DNA of 63,278 nucleotides, filler included, from Reclinomonas americana ATCC 50394 (GCA_048213135.1; 17 parts of 17 records of this genome joined end to end with filler, not necessarily neighbours in it), one strand, 5' to 3'; positions 3,058 to 21,161 are shown, numbered from the whole stretch's first letter. The notes: generated by a model not told the origin, from the letters alone. Translations and numbers: made by a program.

Positions 3058-3766
3058 ATGTCTGGAGCCTCGGCCACTCGCTCCTACTGGGACGACGGCG
3101 AGGTCGAATCACTGGCCACACACACCGCCTCCGCCGCCGCACCATCCTCCTCCTCCTCTCACTCCTCGTACAATGCACTGCGCAAGTCTATTGTGGGCCA
3201 CGCGTGTCGCGTTCCCTCTCCACACGCCGCACTCGGCAACTCGCGTCAGCAACTGTACATGGACTGGACGGCGTCGGGTCGCTCGGTGCATGCGATTGAG
3301 CGCTTCCTCGCGGAGAATGTGTTGCCGACGTATGGAAACACACATACTACGGCCTCCCATTGTGGGTTGCAGGTGAGTGGAAAGGGCAAAGGGAGGGAGG
3401 GAGGGGAGAGAGAGAAGGGAGGGAGAGAGAAGAGAAGGATGAAGATCGACTCATACTCTCCCTCTCTCACACACATCCTGTCCACACCCATCCTGTGCTG
3501 CTCAAGCTCTCTTTCTCGCNNNNNNNNNNNNNNNNNNNNNNNNNNNNNNNNNNNNNNNNNNNNTTAATTAATTAANNNNNNNNNNNNNNNNNNNNNNNNN
3601 NNNNNNNNNNNNNNNNNNNTCTCTTGCTTGAAGGATGGTGACTGAAGGCTTGAGAAGCATGCAGTTTGGGGAGCACAGAGAAGCAAGAAGAGTGGCGGAA
3701 GAAGAGAGTGAGTGAAAGAGGGAAGCAGAGAGAGAGAGAGAGAGAGAGAGAACTCATGCTCTCTCT

Positions 3767-3798
<32 letters not shown>

Positions 3799-6700
3799 AC
3801 GGATCATGACTGAAGGATAAGCATGAGAGGGGAGCTGGAGAAGGATGATGACTGAAGGCCTGAGAATCACGCTGGGGGGTGAAGAGCGAGTGCGTTCGTG
3901 AGAGAGTGAGTACCTCACTCACCCCATCCACTCTCTCTTCTCTTTCCCCCCTCTTCGTCCAGTCCACCTGCTTCCGCGAGGAGGCACGACAGATCATTGG
4001 CCGTGCGATGAACGCACGCATTCAGTACACCGACGCCCACTCGGACTGCGTGCTCTTTGTGGGCACGGGAGCCACGGCGGGCAGCAACCGACTCGTGCAC
4101 ATTCTCGGCCTCCACGCTCCGGTGCCTGCAGAGCAGCAGCGTGCTGTGGTCTTTGTGGGACCGCATGAGCATCACAGCAACGAGTTGCCGTATCGCGATG
4201 CACCCGGCTGCGATGTGGTGCGAGTGCCGGAGGATGTGCACGGCAATGTGGATCGCGCGGCGCTGCAGCGCCTGCTGGAGCAGTACAGTGAGCGGCCGCT
4301 GAAGATTGGTGCCTTCTCCGCGTGCTCCAACATTACGGGTGTGTGTGCCGACGTGGACGCGCTGGCCGTGCAGCTGCACTTGGCCGGAGCGCTGGCCGTT
4401 TTTGACTATGCGTGCGCGGCGCCGCACATGGCGGTGGATGTGAACACGGCGCACATGTCAATGCATCCGTCGCGACACGACTACGGCGAGGCGCTCGGCA
4501 CCGAGCTGGAGGAGCAGGCGGCGGCGAATCCGTCGCTCCTGCGCAAAGATGCCGTGTTTCTTTCGCCACACAAGTTTGTGGGCGGCCCGGGCACTCCCGG
4601 TGTTCTGTTGCGTTTTCCCCCCTCAAATTGCTTGTGCTATACGTGTCTCACCTCTGTGTTGTACTCGCAGTGTCCTCAAGCGCGCTCTTTTGCTCGGCCG
4701 CGATCAGCAACCCTCGGCAGCCACTGGTGGCGGCACCGTGTTCTTTGTCACCGACCACTCGCATCGCTACTTGAAGAACGCAGAGGAGCGTGAAGAGGCC
4801 GGCACACCCGACGTGGTTGGCGCCGCGCGCTGCGGCCTCGTCTTCCAGTTGCTGCAGTCGATGCCCGGTGGGGCGGCGGCCATGGAGGCCCGCGAGGCGG
4901 AAATCCTGCAACGCGTCGACGCCCGCCTGCGCGCTCATCCGCACATTGTGTGTCTCGGTCCGGCCGCCGACTCCAGCAAGACGAGACGTGTACCGGTGGT
5001 GTCGTTCCTCGTGCGCGCCCCGGCACCCAGTCGACGCTTCCTGCACTACCAGTTTGTGTGCTCGCTGCTCAACGACGTGTTCGGCATTCAGTCGCGCGGC
5101 GGCTGCGTGTGTGCCGCTCCCTACGGTCTCTCTCTCCTCGGCATTCCGCCGGCGGTGGCCGACACCATTGAGCGCACGTTGGTGGACGGTCTGGCGGAAC
5201 CGCTGCGGCCGGGCTTCACGCGTGTCAGTTTTCCGTTCTTCATGTCGGACGCCGAGGTCGATTACGCCATTGATGCGATCGTCGCCATTGCGGAGGATGG
5301 CTGGCGTTTGATGCCCGAGTACCGCTCCAATGCACGCACCGGTGCCTTCAAGCACCGCTCGCGTGCCACCCGCTTCCCGGAACGTCTGTGGCTGGCCCAA
5401 TTCGCACTCGACGACTCAGCGTCACCACCAGCACCTCTGGCGGCAGAGGTGGACGACGCCACATACGAGGCGACACTGCGTGAGCAGCTGGCCGATGGCA
5501 CCGCTCTTTTGCAGGCCGGTGCGTCAATGGAGAGTGATCACACGGCGGTGGCTGAGCCGGATGTGTGTGCGCCGTCCATTAGGTGGTGGATGACGCCGGG
5601 CGAGGCCAGACTGCTGTTGAGTGACCGACTGGCGGTGAACAGCGATGAGGAGGAGGCGTGGATGGTCGGTGTCATGTGTCCGCGTGCGTATGTCGCACAG
5701 GCAACTGGAGAAGCAGCATCGTCATCCAGCGCAGGAGGAGCTGCAGCGGCAGCCGCGAGTCCGAACGGTGACAAGGGGTCTGATGGATCGGGCGCGTTCT
5801 GCCCGATGATCACTCCCTCGGCTCGTGCGGCGGCCACGCAGCACCTGGCGACCATGATCGATGACCTGATCGTGTCGACCAAGGCCACCGTGGGCTCCTC
5901 GCTGCGCCGTGTACCGCCGCGCAAGCTGTACAGGATTGTGGTCGAGGCCGTCACCGTCTTCAACATGATCAAGGACGGCGATCGTGTGCTGCTCGGTCTG
6001 TCCGGCGGCAAGGACTCGCTGGCACTACTGCACATTTTACTGGAGATGCAGCGCAAGTCGGCGTTGCGGTTTGAGGTCTGTTGACGCCGAGTGATGAGGA
6101 GGAGAGATGTGTCGCTGTGTGCTCACCATGTGTTGTGTGTTGCGTCGCCGCAGCTCGGTTGCGCCACTGTCGATCCGGGCGATCAGTCGGCCTTCAACCC
6201 GCGACCGCTGTGCCGCTACGTGGAGGCTCTCGGCGTGCCGTACTTTTATCTGGAGCAAGATATTTATGGGGCGGCTGCCGGCGGCTCCATGCGTGGCGAA
6301 TCGATTTGTGCATTCTGTTCGCGGATGAAGCGCGGTTCGTTGTATTCATGTGCGCGACGCCACGGATACACGGTGCTCGCACTGGCGCAACATCTGGACG
6401 ACTTTGCGGAAAGCATGTTCATGTCGGTGTTCCGCAACGGCCTGCTGCGCACGATGAAGGCCAATTATCTCGAGAAGGGCGGCGACGTGCGTGTCATTCG
6501 GCCGCTGTGCTTTGTGCGCGAGCATGCCACCAAGGAGTTTGCGTACTCGTCGGGCTTGCCGGTGATTCCCGACAACTGCCCCGGCTGCTTCGAGGGCCCG
6601 AAGGAGCGTGAGCGCGTCAAGAAGCTCCTGAAGCGCGAAGAGGCGCAACTCGGCGGCGGCCACCTGTTCGGCTCCATTCGTCGGGCCATTCAGCCACTCA

Positions 6701-6909
6701 TGGCACTTGGCGAGCTCGAGTGGCATGACGACATGGGCCAGCTGGGCAACATGGCAGGCGAGGCGGTGTTGCTGACAGTGCGTCATCCGGCGACTGTGGC
6801 GGCGGCGGCGGCGGCGGCGGCGGCAGTGGTGGGAGAGGTGAATGGGCACGTCGCGATCGGTGAAGCATCATCGTCGTCGTCGGTGGCGGTGGAAGGTGGA
6901 GAACGATAG
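3058..6909 (+). CDS. Fusion of a class-V aminotransferase/cysteine desulfurase-like domain with a TtcA-like tRNA 2-thiolation (PP-loop) domain
   Basis: Exons 3058-3372, 3963-4606, 4671-6075, 6154-6909. N-half motifs: YMDWTASGR, YGNTHT, EHHSN, DYACAAP, SPHKFVGGPG (PLP Lys), SRGGCVCAAPY (catalytic Cys region). C-half motifs: GLSGGKDS, CAFCSRMKRG, LAQHLDD, IRPL, CPGC. The desulfurase C-terminal part and the PP-loop lie in the same exon and frame. Confidence 0.92.
3520..3619. other. Assembly gap with artificial six-frame-stop linker (first of 16)
   Basis: N-run + TTAATTAATTAA + N-run. Others begin near 7598, 15186, 16799, 30141, 31412, 34622, 37086, 39575, 43017, 44654, 46340, 49480, 51281, 56449, 60505. 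Confidence 0.97.
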
Positions 6910-7235: not shown

Positions 7236-7909
7236 ATGTACGGGCCTCCGCACTGGAGCACGGGCCTCTTCGAGGTGTGCGAGGACAAGGGCACGTGGTA
7301 AGTCTCTCCCTCTCCCACACACTCACACTCTCACACACACACACACACTCTCATGTTAATCAATCACTTGCCCCTCGCAGTGTGCGTGGCGCCTGCTGTC
7401 CATGCGTGCTGGCAGCAGAGAACAAGGCGCGCATGTTGCGTTCCACTCTCATCCTCTCATCCTCTCTCTGCGTAGTCACTCTCTCACAATCTACACACAG
7501 TGACGGACGCAAGACGACGTTTTTCGACTGCTTGTTGCGTCCCTCTCTCTCTCTCTCTCTCTCTCCACACACACACTCCTTGACTCGCACACACACANNN
7601 NNNNNNNNNNNNNNNNNNNNNNNNNNNNNNNNNNNNNNNNNTTAATTAATTAANNNNNNNNNNNNNNNNNNNNNNNNNNNNNNNNNNNNNNNNNNNNGGC
7701 TGGTGGCCTACATGAAGAGGCCACAGGAGGACCCGATGTTGGCCACGCGACTCATCCCCACGGTGCCTCTGACGGCCGCCAATGCCGACGAGGTCGAGGC
7801 CTTTAAGAAGAAGCAAAAGAAGAAGATTCGCAAGGCCATGAGTCCCAGCAGCGGCATGGGAAGTCCCATGGCCAGTAGGCAGGTGGCGTCGCCGTCGTCC
7901 ATGTTGTAA
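7236..7909 (+). CDS. PLAC8-family Cys-rich protein (middle lost in gap)
   Basis: Exons 7236-7297, 7381-7434, 7501-7533 splice to MYGPPHWSTGLFEVCEDKGTCVRGACCPCVLAAENKARIDGRKTTFFDC (WSTGLF and CCPC motifs). Probable last exon ends at TAA 7909 after the gap. Confidence 0.8.
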
Positions 7910-7968
7910 TTAAATGCAGTGAGAGAGGAGTGGTGTTTTACCTCGCTCGGAAGGGAGCGACAGCAGTG

Positions 7969-8022
<54 letters not shown>

Positions 8023-8615
8023 TGGTGTTTAGTCGCTCGCAGGGAATGACAGCCAGCAGTGGCAGGGATGACCAGAAGGCAAGTGGCCTCGAGCTCGCCG
8101 TAATTCAATGAGAGAGAAATGGTGTTTTGTTGCTCAGGGGTACGTATGACAAGCTGGCGATCAGGAGTGGGAGGGATAACCAGAAGGCAAGCTCTTTCTC
8201 ACTGAATTATGGTGAGGCCACTTCTTCTCATGGCACTGCAGGGATTCATTCATCGCCAATCTTGGTCTGTCGTTCCTCTGAGCGAGTGAACATCTCTCAC
8301 TGATTAATTACGGCGAGCGGCGCGACGAATGAGTCCCAGTAGTGATGAGAAGAAGCGTGGCCTCGAGCTCGCCGTAATTCAATGAGAGAGAAAAAATTGT
8401 GGGGAACGACAGCATAGCGATCAGCAGTGGCATGGGAAGAAGTGTGGCCTCTCCGTCATCCACGTTGCAAGTACAGGGGAACAACGTGTTGGCGATCAGT
8501 GAGTCCCAGCAGTGGCACGGGAAGACGTGTGGCCTCTCCGTCGTCATCCACGATGCAACCAAACAAGAGAGAGAAATGGAGTTTACTCGCTCAGGGGAAC
8601 GCCAAGTTGGCAATC
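7840..8615. repeat. Degenerate ~90-120-bp tandem repeats between two convergent stop codons
   Basis: Recurrent cagcagtggca(t)gggaag...gtggcctc...taattcaatgagagagaaatggtgttt...cgctcagggg. Confidence 0.7.
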
Positions 8616-16928: not shown

Positions 16929-19900
16929 TCAAGGGCTCACGGCGGCCGCAGCCGACGGTGGCGCCAGCACAATCGTGTGATATCCGTACTCGTCTCCCGA
17001 GTCGAAACGGGTGATGGACGTGCGACAGAGTGGGCACTCGCCGCGTCGCTCGACAACTTGCTGCGCACAGTTGCGGCACATCACCTCGTGGCCGCACGGA
17101 CGCAATCGAGTGTCGCGCACATCGTAACAGAGAACGCAGGCGCGACGGCACGACAACGCAGTGAGATCGCGCATCTCCGTCACCAGTTCGTCGGCACTCG
17201 GGCGGCGGTTAGGTCGATAGTCGACGCAGCTGTTTCTCGAATCATGAGGGACGACCTACACAGTGCGCGTATGCAACGGGGCTGATGCTTACTACTCACC
17301 GCATGGCCAAGCGCACAAGACGGCGACAGACGGATGTGGGCCATTCTCGGCCGACCGCGGTGTCGGCCAGCTGCACAGCGGACTCATCGAGTTTCGCCGC
17401 GTCGTCGTCCTCCACCATCGCCTCGATCCACTTGTGTACCTCGGCAATTGGCTGACCGGAGAACAGCGCAGAATGCCACGCAGTGCCTGCGGATCGGCAT
17501 AGTTGTGGTCGCCTGCAAACTGCACCGAGAGGTGTGTCTGCTTGTCGCCACACCCCCATGATGAGGACATTATCGGTGGGAAGACGAGGGACAGGAAAGG
17601 AGACTCACCCCGCCGGTGCGGAACCAGTGCGCGATTCCCAGGTCCGAGATGCATGCCTGACCCCGCTCGTCAAACAGAATGTTGGCTGGCTTCAGGTCGC
17701 GGTGAATGACTGCGAATCATGGTTATCAAGCGAGGTCAATCACTCACAACCGAGTTCACGGAGACTCACCATTCTGGGTGAAGGCGAGAACAGAATGCAG
17801 TGACAGTGAGAGGGAAGGAGAGTGAGAAACGAAGTCAACAGCAAGCTGCACAACGACACCACAAACCATCCTGTACAACAAGAAGAAAGGATGAGAAACG
17901 ACCACATGCACCTGACTTCTTATTGCAGCAGCTGCCTCACCTGTGCAATGCCGCCACGATCTCCGAACAACGAAGCAAACATGTCATCCGTTCCTCAATG
18001 GCCATGACAGGCAATCCGAGCGCTTGATACTCCAACAACCGGTGCTCGAGGTTGTGCTCACTTGTCAATGATCGAGCGAAGAACAGCACATCAGCAACAA
18101 CGAATCAAAAGAACTGCATGTGACCAACACCAACCTCATGGCCTCCAGCACAATGCACTTTTCTCCACGGTCCGATTCGGCGAAGCCAATCATGCGCACC
18201 ACACCAGGCACCGTCACACTCTTCAGTTTCTCCAACTGCATTCCAGCAAGTTACGATAAACACACAGGGGGATGATCACCTGGTCTCCGCACACACGCAG
18301 TGCTCACCTCATTGGAAAACGACTCAATGCACCACGGCGCATCGCTGTCGAACACCTTGACGGCCACCTGCTGCTCCTTCCATGTGCCAGAAAACACGCT
18401 CCCTTGTCCGCCCGTGCCAAGACGACGAGCAAAGCCATTTGTCATGGCGCCGATTTGCTCCCAGGTGAACGCCGTGAGCGGAACTGTAGTACTGCTGGTC
18501 AGCGAAGAAACGCACAAGCAGTCTTTGCAACACACTCAGTCGTGCTCACCACGATGGTTGAGCTCGTGCTGCGCGGTGGCCAAGTCTGCGGCCAGTCGCT
18601 TTGCGCGGTCGTATTCTTGCTGGCGTTGCTCGTCCATTCGCTCCAAGGAGACGCGAAGAGCCGCACATTCCTCACGCAAGCGCTGGATAGCGGCCTCTTC
18701 CTGCGGTTGCCCATGCGCCCTCTGCTCCTCCAGCTCCTGCTGCAGGCGCGCAACGTTCGCTGCGCTTGCGCGATCGGCCGCTTGTGGAGCCTCCAATTGC
18801 GCGGTCAACTGCTCGACTCGCTGTCGCTGCTCCTCCGCCTCGCGTCGCGATTGCGTAACGGTGGCCTCGTGTCGCTGCACCAGCTGCTGCGCTGCATCCA
18901 CTTGGGCGGCCCGCTCGCGGACCGCCGCCTGTTGCTCTTCCACCTCGCGCGGCGGTTGCGCGATGGTTCCTTCGTGCTGCTGCGTCGTCGCCCGCTGTAG
19001 CGCGAGGACACGCTGCAGCTGGGCAATGGTGGCCTGTGATTGCGACTGCTGGCTGCGAAGCGTGGTCACCTCCTGCGTCTGCCGCTGCACGAGGCGCTGC
19101 TGCTCGGTCAAGTCGTGTTGCAGTTGTGCGTTTGCTGCCTCCGGCTGCTGCTCGCGGGCCGAGTTCACCGGTGGCGGCTGGTTGGTGCACAGAGAGGTCA
19201 GTGTTGGGCAGGCATCGGCACTTGTCGAGATTCTCTCACCGGAAAATGCACTGGTGGTGAAGCCGATGCAAAAAACGCAGAGGAACCTGTAGTGGCGGAT
19301 GAACAACAAGAGTGTTGAGGATGAATTAAAAGAGTGCGTCACAGACGTACCAGATGGGGAAGTTATTGAAAAAACCTTGCGGAGTGTCGCAAGGGCTGCG
19401 AAGGCGCTGATTATACGGTCGGCAGTACGCATGGTGGCTTCGCGGTCCGGTCCCAGCTCGCGACGACGCAGTGGCAACACCTCGAAGACATCCAACGCCT
19501 CCTCCAGATCCAACCCGCCTGCTCTGGCCACCGCCGTTGCCATGATTTGCATGCTCACCAGCCAGTCCAGGTGATCCTTGTCGACCAGCAATTCAACCTT
19601 CCGGCGCAAAATGTCGCGCATAATCCGAATCGACTCCTCGCACTCCTTGTTGTCATCGAGCGCCTGTGCCAAGTGGTGCCACGTATTCAACGCATCCTCG
19701 ACGTCCTCCTTGGCCCCATAGCGCTCCTGCTTCTCCGCCGTGTCACGCAGAAGTGGAATGGCCTCGCGATGCCGCCCGAGCTGCCACAGCGCATTGCCCA
19801 TGCTGGAAGCCACAATCAATGTCTCCTTGTGAGTCGCACCCGACACGCGCTTTTTCCTCTCCAGCACATCCTCGAACACCGGCAATGCGCTCTGCGCATC

Positions 19901-20239
19901 TCCCGAATTCAAGAGTGCATTCGCGTAGTTGTGTGCACACGCAAGAGTCCATGCATCATCGGGGCCGCGCAAGTCCTCAAAGTCTCGCATGCAGCGAGCG
20001 AGGAGAGGTGCCGCGGTGGCATAGTCACCACTGCGGCAGTGCCGTCGGGCCTCATCGTACTGCCGCTTGACCTCCTCGAAAGTCGGCGCATCACGACCTT
20101 CGCTCCGTTCACCGTCGGGGCTGCGCATGTCCTCAAAATCTCGCCAGCAGGTACCATACAGGCGCGCGGCGGCGGCATAGTCACCACTGTGTAAAAGCTG
20201 CAGGGCCTCATCATTGACCTCCGCGAAAGTCCGACGCAT
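16929..20239 (-). pseudogene. TPR-coiled coil-RLK/Pelle-like kinase-RING, copy 1 (frameshifted)
   Basis: Same exon structure as copies 2 and 3 and HRD intact. A 43-nt deletion near 17467 removes PSADVYCLGLILLQ (subdomain IX) and shifts the frame. Confidence 0.82.
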
Positions 20240-21161
20240 GACCTCCGCGCTCCGACGCAAGACGACTCGCCTGTCGGACAACGATGCATTGTGGCGGACA
20301 GCAAACTTCCTGTGGTTGTTGCCCCCTTATTACACACTGTATGCACTGCAATATCCAAACTCTTTACGCAGATCACGCGAGGGGTGTGGAAGAAGTGTTC
20401 ATGCAGTCCAATGCAAGATGATCGACGTCGATCGCGATCGCGAGTCTGCTCACGTCGCTTCGTTGAGACAGCGAGCGACGTCGTTCCCATTCTATGCAAT
20501 GCTTGGATATTATCGAAACAGTTGCCGTCGGTCTTGCCTGCCAACAAATATGTTTGAGATCCTGTTCTTGCCAGATCGCCACAACACCCACTCGCCATCA
20601 TCCTTCGCCGCCACAGAAAATCGCTCTCACGGTCTTGCCTAGTCGCATGCTCATATGTCACCGGCGACCAGTTGCTGTCGCGCGTTCGTCTCCCTCGATC
20701 GCTCACGATCTTGCTGCGCTCTCTGCATGCAAGTCTCTTTCGATCGCTGAGTCGAGAAAGCGAAAACTGTGGAGTATAGCATAGGTCTCTTCATCGATTG
20801 ACAATAATGTCTCGTGCATGTGCACCTTTACCTCGCGTGCATTCAGCCTCCCTCGTTCGCACCTCACGATCGTGTTCCTCTCGCACGCACTGCGATCTTC
20901 ACTCGCCATATCGCAGCCTCTCTCACTCAGACTCTCCAGAGTCTCTGCACCTGTGCACTCCCTATTTTCGATCGCTCTTTGAGGGCCAAAGAGAAAGAGT
21001 GAAAGGGGAGAAATACTGGTCATCTCCATCGATACAGCCCCACAGCTTCTTGCTTGATCGCTCCTCACACTCTCCCTTCTTTATCCCTCTCTCTCCTCTC
21101 GCTCCCTCTTCCCTTCTTGCGCACACAATCACAATCTCCATCGGCCGATCTGACTTGTCAG

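Follow-up and report, generated by a model that had tools for sequence, protein, structure and literature searches.

A cysteine desulfurase-like::TtcA-like fusion gene in Reclinomonas americana, a distant protist member of a family found in many eukaryotes

Introduction

The 2-thiocytidine at position 32 of transfer RNA (tRNA), s2C32, is given for bacteria only in the relevant section of a 2017 review (PMC5372739). Escherichia coli TtcA, as characterized in the sections cited here of Bouvier 2014 (PMC4081106), is a dimer with a [4Fe-4S]-dependent and ATP-dependent chemistry, and its residues Cys122, Cys125 and Cys222 are essential and were proposed as the [4Fe-4S] ligands. A preprint of September 2026 (10.64898/2026.09.27.754811) reports, as a first for eukaryotes, s2C in Aplysia, where it was located at position 32 of tRNA-Lys-UUU. 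According to its accessible text, a protein of 1177 amino acids (aa) consisting of CsdA and TtcA-like parts is the only TtcA homologue in the Aplysia genome, has orthologues in 28 mollusc species and beyond, and was put forward as the s2C32 synthase. No other report of a CsdA::TtcA fusion was found in the literature searched. Here we analyzed a stretch of 63,278 nucleotides (nt) from Reclinomonas americana ATCC 50394 (GCA_048213135.1), referred to as the window, and describe a cysteine desulfurase-like::TtcA-like fusion gene at positions 3058 to 6909. Sequence comparison identifies it as a divergent protist orthologue in a CsdA-like::TtcA-like fusion family that extends across eukaryotes and whose architecture is already known.

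Like the Aplysia 'IscS-TtcA' protein (LOC101861551) as described in the preprint, the Reclinomonas product has a CsdA/COG0520-type pyridoxal phosphate (PLP) domain, a variable linker and a TtcA-like domain in the same order, together with SGGKDS, two CxxC motifs, the PLP lysine and a C-x-C in the N-terminal half (Cys448/Cys450 in Aplysia). The two differ in that the Aplysia protein is 1177 aa long with a 405-aa inter-domain region, whereas ours has 1039 aa and a linker of ~85 aa. The Aplysia protein is known to us by its description, and the two genes appear to be orthologous as judged through other animal members of the family. The C-terminal half (C-half) resembles E. coli TtcA (b1344) in being a PP-loop ATPase with aligned CAFC/CPGC motifs and in having TtcA as its top NCBIfam model; E. 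coli TtcA, unlike the fusion, is a stand-alone protein of 311 aa that obtains sulfur and cluster through IscS/IscU. The N-terminal half (N-half) shares with the SufS, CsdA and CsdB structures (8d8s, 1i29, 5ft4, 6wci) the class-V fold, the xHK lysine, the HHxN histidine and the RxGxxCAxP cysteine. Unlike these enzymes it has an extra cysteine two residues upstream and a ~140-aa C-terminal extension that closes with an LRWFxxPxE-like motif, and it is not known to have a SufE/CsdE/SufU partner.

TtuA, NcsA and Ncs6-CTU1 are like the C-half in belonging to the PP-loop superfamily and in cluster-dependent sulfur insertion. They act on U54/U34, use ubiquitin-like thiocarboxylate donors and carry zinc-finger modules. 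A Pfam scan found no zinc-ribbon domain in the fusion gene, and TtuA and NcsA also differ from the C-half family by far lower profile scores.

If the function proposed below is right, the protein would be a tRNA thiolase with a built-in sulfur donor, as against the multi-protein relays for s2U34 and s2T54, and 2-thiocytidine, long held to be prokaryotic, would be encoded across many eukaryotic lineages. New here are the distant protist member, the SufS-type character of the N-half, a counterpart family in Actinomycetota and the position of the C-half outside the TtcA equivalog. The remaining value lies in this biochemically uncharacterised family; the gene is not a new kind of system.

Gene structure

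We located the gene on the plus strand from stop-to-stop frames and the raw sequence, with its ATG at 3058-3060 and its TAG at 6907-6909. These were exactly the bounds of the original prediction, and all the motifs named in that prediction were present where it had placed them. The fusion is a genuine four-exon eukaryotic gene. Its spliced coding sequence of 3120 nt, in which the sole stop is terminal, encodes 1039 aa, and its three introns (590, 64 and 78 nt) are all of the GT-AG type. The protein is tripartite: its class-V PLP domain, which is SufS/CsdA-like, is joined by a low-complexity linker to a TtcA-like PP-loop domain. The exons and introns are as follows.

3058..3372, plus strand: exon 1, aa 1-105, N-terminal part of the class-V PLP domain, with the sequence landmarks YMDWTASGRS and YGNTHTTAS
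3373..3962, plus strand: intron 1, GTGAGT..CAG, 590 nt as assembled, including a 100-nt spacer at 3520-3619
3963..4606, plus strand: exon 2, aa 106-319 plus 2 bases, large PLP-binding domain
4607..4670, plus strand: intron 2, 64 nt, GTTGCG..CAG, phase 2
4671..6075, plus strand: exon 3, aa 320-788, PLP small domain, extension, linker and start of the PP-loop domain
6076..6153, plus strand: intron 3, 78 nt, GTCTGT..CAG, phase 0
6154..6909, plus strand: exon 4, aa 789-1039 plus TAG, remainder of the TtcA-like domain

Exon 3 sits inside an uninterrupted frame (4444-6084), and since it contains both the C-terminal portion of the PLP domain and the PP-loop, with the linker between them, the fusion is independent of splice prediction. 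The earlier proposal of a single intron-containing gene was thus borne out, since one frame in exon 3 spans both halves. We aligned the window gene with 19 full-length fused homologues, which were named or transcript-derived members of the family (n=20). Exon 1, whose translation alone had no Pfam match, was collinear with the N-termini of the 19 homologues, and the exon 1/2 junction (HCGLQ/STCFREEARQ) was likewise collinear with zero residues lost. The exon 2/3 junction GVL/VLKRALL corresponded to GVLVVKKRLL of the homologues and the exon 3/4 junction ALRFE/LGCATVDPG to their VRFEVACATVDPQT. Intron 1 was rich in GA/CT repeats, and since a spacer lies inside it, exon 1 and exons 2-4 are on different contigs. 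Relative to the homologues, all three junctions were continuous, with neither gaps nor additional residues; the join is therefore consistent and no exon is concealed in the gap.

The window is a pseudo-scaffold of contigs of ~1-7 kb, joined by 16 identical spacers of 100 nt (44 N, TTAATTAATTAA and 44 N, with stops in all six frames) at 3520-3619, 7598-7697 and 14 further sites. This construction, with one spacer within intron 1, is what would speak for an artefact, be it a false gene model that unites two neighbouring genes, a chimeric scaffold or contaminating bacterial DNA. Against this, the two halves meet inside the single open frame 4444-6084 on one contig, spliceosomal GT-AG introns are present, and homologues of like domain order include transcript-derived sequences (TRINITY and EG_transcript entries). 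The scaffold join bears on exon 1 alone, whose fit to the homologues is exact. We consider an artefact extremely improbable, and for the fusion itself this explanation is effectively refuted.

The N-terminus aligned with the starts of the 19 homologues with no extension, which suggests a cytosolic location of the fusion protein. At the other end, a species-specific Ala/Ser-rich tail (~aa 986-1039) lies in exon 4. The PLP domain carries an insertion of ~21 aa (~aa 273-293; 4455-4530; PSRHDYGEALGTELEEQAAAN) that was absent from all 19 aligned homologues and is probably a lineage-specific surface loop. We also considered it as a missed intron and rejected this by eye, as there was no in-frame GT..AG pair of suitable length and no pyrimidine tract.

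Distribution of the fusion

A search with exon 3 as the query identified 282 long proteins (820-2340 aa) at E <= 0.001. Both Pfam domains were present in 113 of the best 120 of these long matches. Exon 3 alone matched fused homologues at E values down to 3.5e-88, and the fusion architecture is not due to chance. The original prediction had allowed that similar fusions may be annotated in other eukaryotes; the domain-architecture check agreed with this, and the architecture, being found in many eukaryotes, is not new.

The fused members included the oomycetes Aphanomyces, Phytophthora, Bremia, Hyaloperonospora and Plasmopara, the labyrinthulid Hondaea, the brown alga Pylaiella, the cryptophyte Guillardia, a Euglena transcript, the fungus Hyaloraphidium and a cercozoan. 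A green-alga entry with the label PRCOL, which we take to stand for Prasinoderma, was also fused. Among the invertebrates, fused members came from corals, sea urchin, starfish, sponges, tick, termite, barnacle and mayfly. An exhaustive search of representatives gave 472 cluster representatives at E <= 1e-30, and its short matches were mostly partial or unnamed proteins. In the N-half the best identities to the window gene were 45-55%, and in the C-half the best was 61%; Reclinomonas americana therefore has no close relative in the searched collections.

Additional domains were matched in a few of the fused homologues. A thioredoxin domain (PF00085) was found in P0076, and PF00155 in P0085, P0091, P0107 and P0115. 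PF00155 belongs to the same PLP superfamily, and its match may overlie the class-V domain.

Conserved motifs

The motifs and regions of the protein are given below.

aa 174-178, plus strand: EHHSN, exon 2
4572-4574, plus strand: PLP lysine K309 in SPHKF, exon 2
5104-5112, plus strand: C465 and C467 in RGGCVCAAPY, exon 3
aa 623-632, plus strand: IRWWMTPGEA at the end of the N-half extension, exon 3
5632-5886, plus strand: low-complexity linker, ~aa 641-725, exon 3
6001-6018, plus strand: PP-loop SGGKDS, aa 764-769, exon 3
6307-6318, plus strand: CAFC (C840/C843), aa 840-843, exon 4
6577-6588, plus strand: CPGC (C930/C933), aa 930-933, exon 4

The only invariant cysteines in the 20-sequence alignment were C465, C467, C840, C843 and C933, with C930 present in 19 of the 20. 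In a separate alignment of 34 fused homologues, the HK pair, the C-x-C, SGGKDS and the four CxxC cysteines were retained in every sequence (34/34). The linker was unconserved and rich in Ala, Ser and Gly, most evidently in a stretch at ~aa 660-700. Because the N-half runs on into a conserved extension, the genuine linker is confined to ~aa 641-725.

The N-half is a SufS-type domain

Exon translations matched Pfam Aminotran_5 (exon 2 at 7.7e-14 and exon 3 at 3.3e-11), and exon 2 matched the SufS subfamily model at 1.8e-12. The bit scores of the window exons on the SufS model were 46.9 and 25.6, and the N-half thus stayed far short of the 475 bits required for the SufS subfamily (TIGR01979) and did not reach the CsdA equivalog cut-offs either. 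By profile score, then, the N-half is a distinct, divergent class-V family. A search of the PDB indicated that its closest solved relatives are the type-II desulfurases SufS, CsdA and CsdB, and not IscS/NifS.

We used the Euglena homologue to relate individual residues to the solved desulfurase 8d8s. Its SPHK..GGPG..GVL paired with SGHKMLGPTGIGVL, so that K309 of the window gene corresponds, through Euglena, to the SGHK lysine of 8d8s. In addition, EHHSN of the Euglena protein paired with EHHAN of a solved desulfurase, and VRGGCMCAGP with VRAGHHCAQP of 8d8s. Exon 3 of the window aligned directly with 6wci, its SRGGCVCAAPY pairing with RSGQHCAHPL, and on account of this alignment we take C467 to correspond to the catalytic cysteine of SufS-type enzymes. 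An additional cysteine, C465, is as invariant as C467. By these alignments the N-half resembles the SufS-type (type II) desulfurases and not IscS, and its catalytic cysteine can be identified. The desulfurase-like assignment made in the original prediction was therefore upheld, the lysine and the catalytic cysteine both aligning with solved SufS-type enzymes. The Aplysia preprint, in its accessible text, states that a comparison with IscS failed to reveal the desulfurase catalytic cysteine (10.64898/2026.09.27.754811). The choice of IscS for that comparison would explain why the residue was missed; in our alignments the domain is SufS-type and the second cysteine of the C-x-C corresponds to the catalytic residue.

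The N-half ends in a conserved extension of ~140-146 aa (5194-5631) that closes with an LRWFxxPxE-type motif. When the isolated extension was modelled by AlphaFold2 with 46 sequences, a mostly helical model was obtained with a mean pLDDT of 75, and the extension probably requires the remaining domain for folding.

An uncharacterised class-V PLP family of ~575 aa is widespread as a stand-alone protein in Actinomycetota (e.g. Angustibacter, Cryobacterium, Nocardioides and Dactylosporangium). It spans the whole N-half, including the extension and a terminal LRWFxLP motif, and RGGCSCAGPYG and HK are invariant in it. At least 510 prokaryotic loci of this stand-alone family were confirmed, and the best 80 of the 510 were used for an analysis of the gene neighbourhood.

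Loci L005-L084: match to the stand-alone N-half family at ~5001-6700 in each

Comparison with three reference loci revealed no neighbour shared beyond genus-level synteny, the other open reading frames (ORFs) being present in no more than 14 of the 80 loci once self-overlapping frames were excepted.

The C-half is a TtcA-like domain

Exon 4 matched Pfam ATP_bind_3 at 5.9e-9, and the end of exon 3 gave a weak match to the same model. The TtcA model (NCBIfam NF007972, equivalog cut-off 272 bits) matched the end of exon 3 at 7.3e-14 (residues 417-468 of the translation) and exon 4 at 1.6e-35 (122.9 bits). The scores on the competing PP-loop models were as follows.

Window, exon 3 end: TtcA 51.7 bits, TilS_N 19.7, TtuA 15.3
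Window, exon 4: TtcA 122.9 bits, TilS_N 37.5, TtuA 19.0
Three full-length fused homologues: TtcA 200.7-211.4 bits, TilS_N 55.2-64.0, TtuA 37.8-49.8, NcsA 30.2-44.0
E. coli TtcA: TtcA 513.3 bits, TilS_N 65.3, TtuA 50.3, NcsA 57.0

By these profiles the C-half is clearly TtcA-like, lying just outside the curated TtcA equivalog. BLASTP of the C-half against E. coli TtcA (sequence from NC_000913) gave 33% identity over 159 aa, in which CAFC fell on C122/C125 and CPGC on C219/C222. The three cysteines that match the proposed cluster ligands of E. coli TtcA are thus present in the aligned C-half, which would be expected to bind a cluster. No TtcA structure was present in the PDB copy searched, and the PDB matches obtained were weak ones to TtuA PH0300 (7.8e-5) and, for the Euglena homologue, to NcsA 6scy (3.4e-9). 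Exon 4 was 51-61% identical, over 65-81% of its length, to stand-alone proteins of ~250 aa that are called TtcA where named. These proteins come from Gammaproteobacteria (sulfur-oxidising symbionts, Thioalkalispiraceae), are uncharacterised and have no desulfurase domain; they scored 213.7-220.3 bits on the TtcA model, also below the cut-off.

To place the C-half we built a tree of 63 rows by an IQ-TREE quick search under LG+G4. The rows were 20 eukaryotic fused C-halves including that of the window gene, 40 stand-alone short proteins (six named ones and a random 35, with one overlap, from 120 listed), a short tick protein, E. coli TtcA and, as the outgroup, E. coli TilS. CTU1/Ncs6 and TtuA were left out of the tree, and these alternatives were judged by the profile scores and the weak PDB matches. 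A clade with an SH-aLRT of 97 united E. coli TtcA with all six of the named TtcA proteins from Gammaproteobacteria and with 24 further short ones. The eukaryotic domains, together with ten unnamed short proteins, fell outside this bacterial clade; some of the unnamed proteins near the eukaryotes may represent pieces of fused genes on short contigs. The branch of TilS was very long (8.1), which makes the root unreliable, and that of E. coli TtcA had a length of 2.7. By profile and tree we assign the eukaryotic domains to the TtcA family and not to the TilS outgroup, and within the tree they stand apart from the sampled bacterial clade. The original prediction had called this half TtcA, to be refuted by a grouping with CTU1/TtuA or TilS. 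Our profiles and tree grouped it with TtcA, the profiles setting it apart from TilS, TtuA and NcsA, so that this refutation failed; the name is best kept at TtcA-like on account of the equivalog cut-off.

Proposed function and alternatives

We consider it probable that the gene encodes a bifunctional enzyme in which the persulfide of the desulfurase feeds the [4Fe-4S]- and ATP-dependent TtcA-like domain to yield s2C32. The sequence analysis establishes the architecture, the family placement and the conservation of all residues called for in PLP binding, persulfide formation, ATP binding and cluster ligation. The mechanism was modelled on established SufS-type and TtcA chemistry as outlined in the sections cited of PMC4081106 and PMC5372739. 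The N-terminal ~640 aa would be a type-II (SufS/CsdA-like) PLP-dependent cysteine desulfurase with PLP on K309, which would convert L-cysteine to alanine and carry the sulfur on C467 as a persulfide, perhaps relayed through C465. The linker, presumed flexible, would tether the desulfurase to the TtcA-like PP-loop ATPase, and the sulfur would be handed over directly. In the latter domain C840, C843 and C933 would bind a [4Fe-4S] cluster whose fourth iron takes up the sulfide. The SGGKDS loop would adenylate C2 of a tRNA cytidine, and the cluster-bound sulfide would then displace the activated oxygen with release of AMP. The product would be 2-thiocytidine, most probably at position 32. By analogy with E. 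coli TtcA, a dimeric fusion is expected. The enzyme had been called self-contained in the original prediction. This may apply to the mobilisation of sulfur, and it is limited to that, since the [4Fe-4S] cluster must be supplied by the Fe-S assembly machinery of the cell.

Several observations weigh against this bifunctional enzyme. In Reclinomonas americana the case for it rests on sequence, and in Aplysia the link between fusion and s2C32 is, as far as the preprint text goes, correlative (10.64898/2026.09.27.754811). The C-half does not attain the 272 bits of a TtcA equivalog (its two pieces in the window add up to ~175 bits, and the fused homologues have 200.7-211.4), and its substrate specificity is therefore extrapolated. 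It could be that of a TtcA paralogue with a new specificity for another nucleoside, position or RNA (e.g. uridine or a non-tRNA), and we regard this as unlikely. The scores of the C-half family and its ~250-aa relatives (200.7-220.3 bits, where E. coli TtcA has 513) would fit such a paralogue, as would the modest identity to E. coli TtcA and the long branch of the latter. The Aplysia s2C32, moreover, was reported on tRNA-Lys-UUU and not on Arg/Ser tRNAs as in E. coli. On the other hand, TtcA led the models by a wide margin, the bit scores on TtuA, NcsA and TilS being smaller by a factor of 4-7, and both the essential cysteines and the PP-loop aligned with E. coli TtcA. By the preprint's account, s2C32 also occurs in an animal whose sole TtcA homologue is the fusion.

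The remaining points concern the N-half and its coupling to TtcA. Fused homologues scored 100-119 bits on SufS TIGR01979 against its cut-off of 475, the model of the extension had no PDB match at E <= 0.001 in Foldseek (best 1.9), and a PLP chemistry other than desulfuration may be conceived. The N-half might thus act on C-S or C-Se bonds in another way, as a selenocysteine lyase, a desulfinase or a further C-S/C-Se lyase. Cleavage of the linker might, as another alternative, produce two independent enzymes, the sulfur for thiolation then coming by the usual route of the NFS1 type. We find these possibilities quite improbable. Scores far under the SufS/CsdA cut-offs, the unusual C-x-C and a ~140-aa extension with no recognised fold are compatible with a different lyase, whereas the lysine, the stacking histidine (HHSN) and the RxGxxCAxP cysteine are conserved and align with SufS-type desulfurases. 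As for the coupling, a search of 5480 ORFs by hmmsearch found no TtcA-like or PP-loop ORF within ~5 kb in any of the best 80 of the 510 stand-alone loci. The gene neighbourhood thus gives no independent support for the pairing of desulfurase and TtcA, and the bacterial stand-alone family would work without a TtcA partner. Linker cleavage is also raised as a possibility in the text of the Aplysia preprint. The fusion is kept by no fewer than 113 of the top 120 long homologues, which come from very distant eukaryotes, and this argues instead for a functional coupling of the halves.

A wider form of the bifunctional enzyme hypothesis is more tentative, and we would put it somewhat short of an even chance. 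In this form the fusion would be ancient and widely retained, its C-x-C loop would load sulfide onto the free iron of the cluster, and neither NFS1 nor Urm1 nor a carrier would be needed. s2C32 or a related thiocytidine might then be common but overlooked in the cytoplasmic tRNAs of stramenopiles, euglenids, cryptophytes, early-branching green algae, fungi and most invertebrates.

Surroundings of the gene

No tRNA genes or Rfam families were found within the window, and no functional link to the fusion was seen through the neighbouring genes, a DUF285 repeat protein and a TPR protein. The former is a very long open frame at 1-2529 on the minus strand, made up of tandem ~25-aa repeats of the FNQNIGGWNTAAVT type, which runs off the start of the window. 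It matched Pfam DUF285 in 8 stretches with 875.7 bits and is transcribed divergently from the fusion gene. The latter, an open frame at 18536-20326 on the minus strand with TPR_12/TPR_10 repeats, is unrelated to the fusion. Flanking sequence was inspected for the spacers at 3520-3619 and 7598-7697, and both adjoin simple repeats of the GA/CT type. Microsatellites of the (GA)n/(CT)n and GCTT types were abundant in introns and intergenic DNA (3380-3500, 3690-3800, 7250-7600 and 7940-8100), where they yield long SLSLSL/ERERER pseudo-frames.

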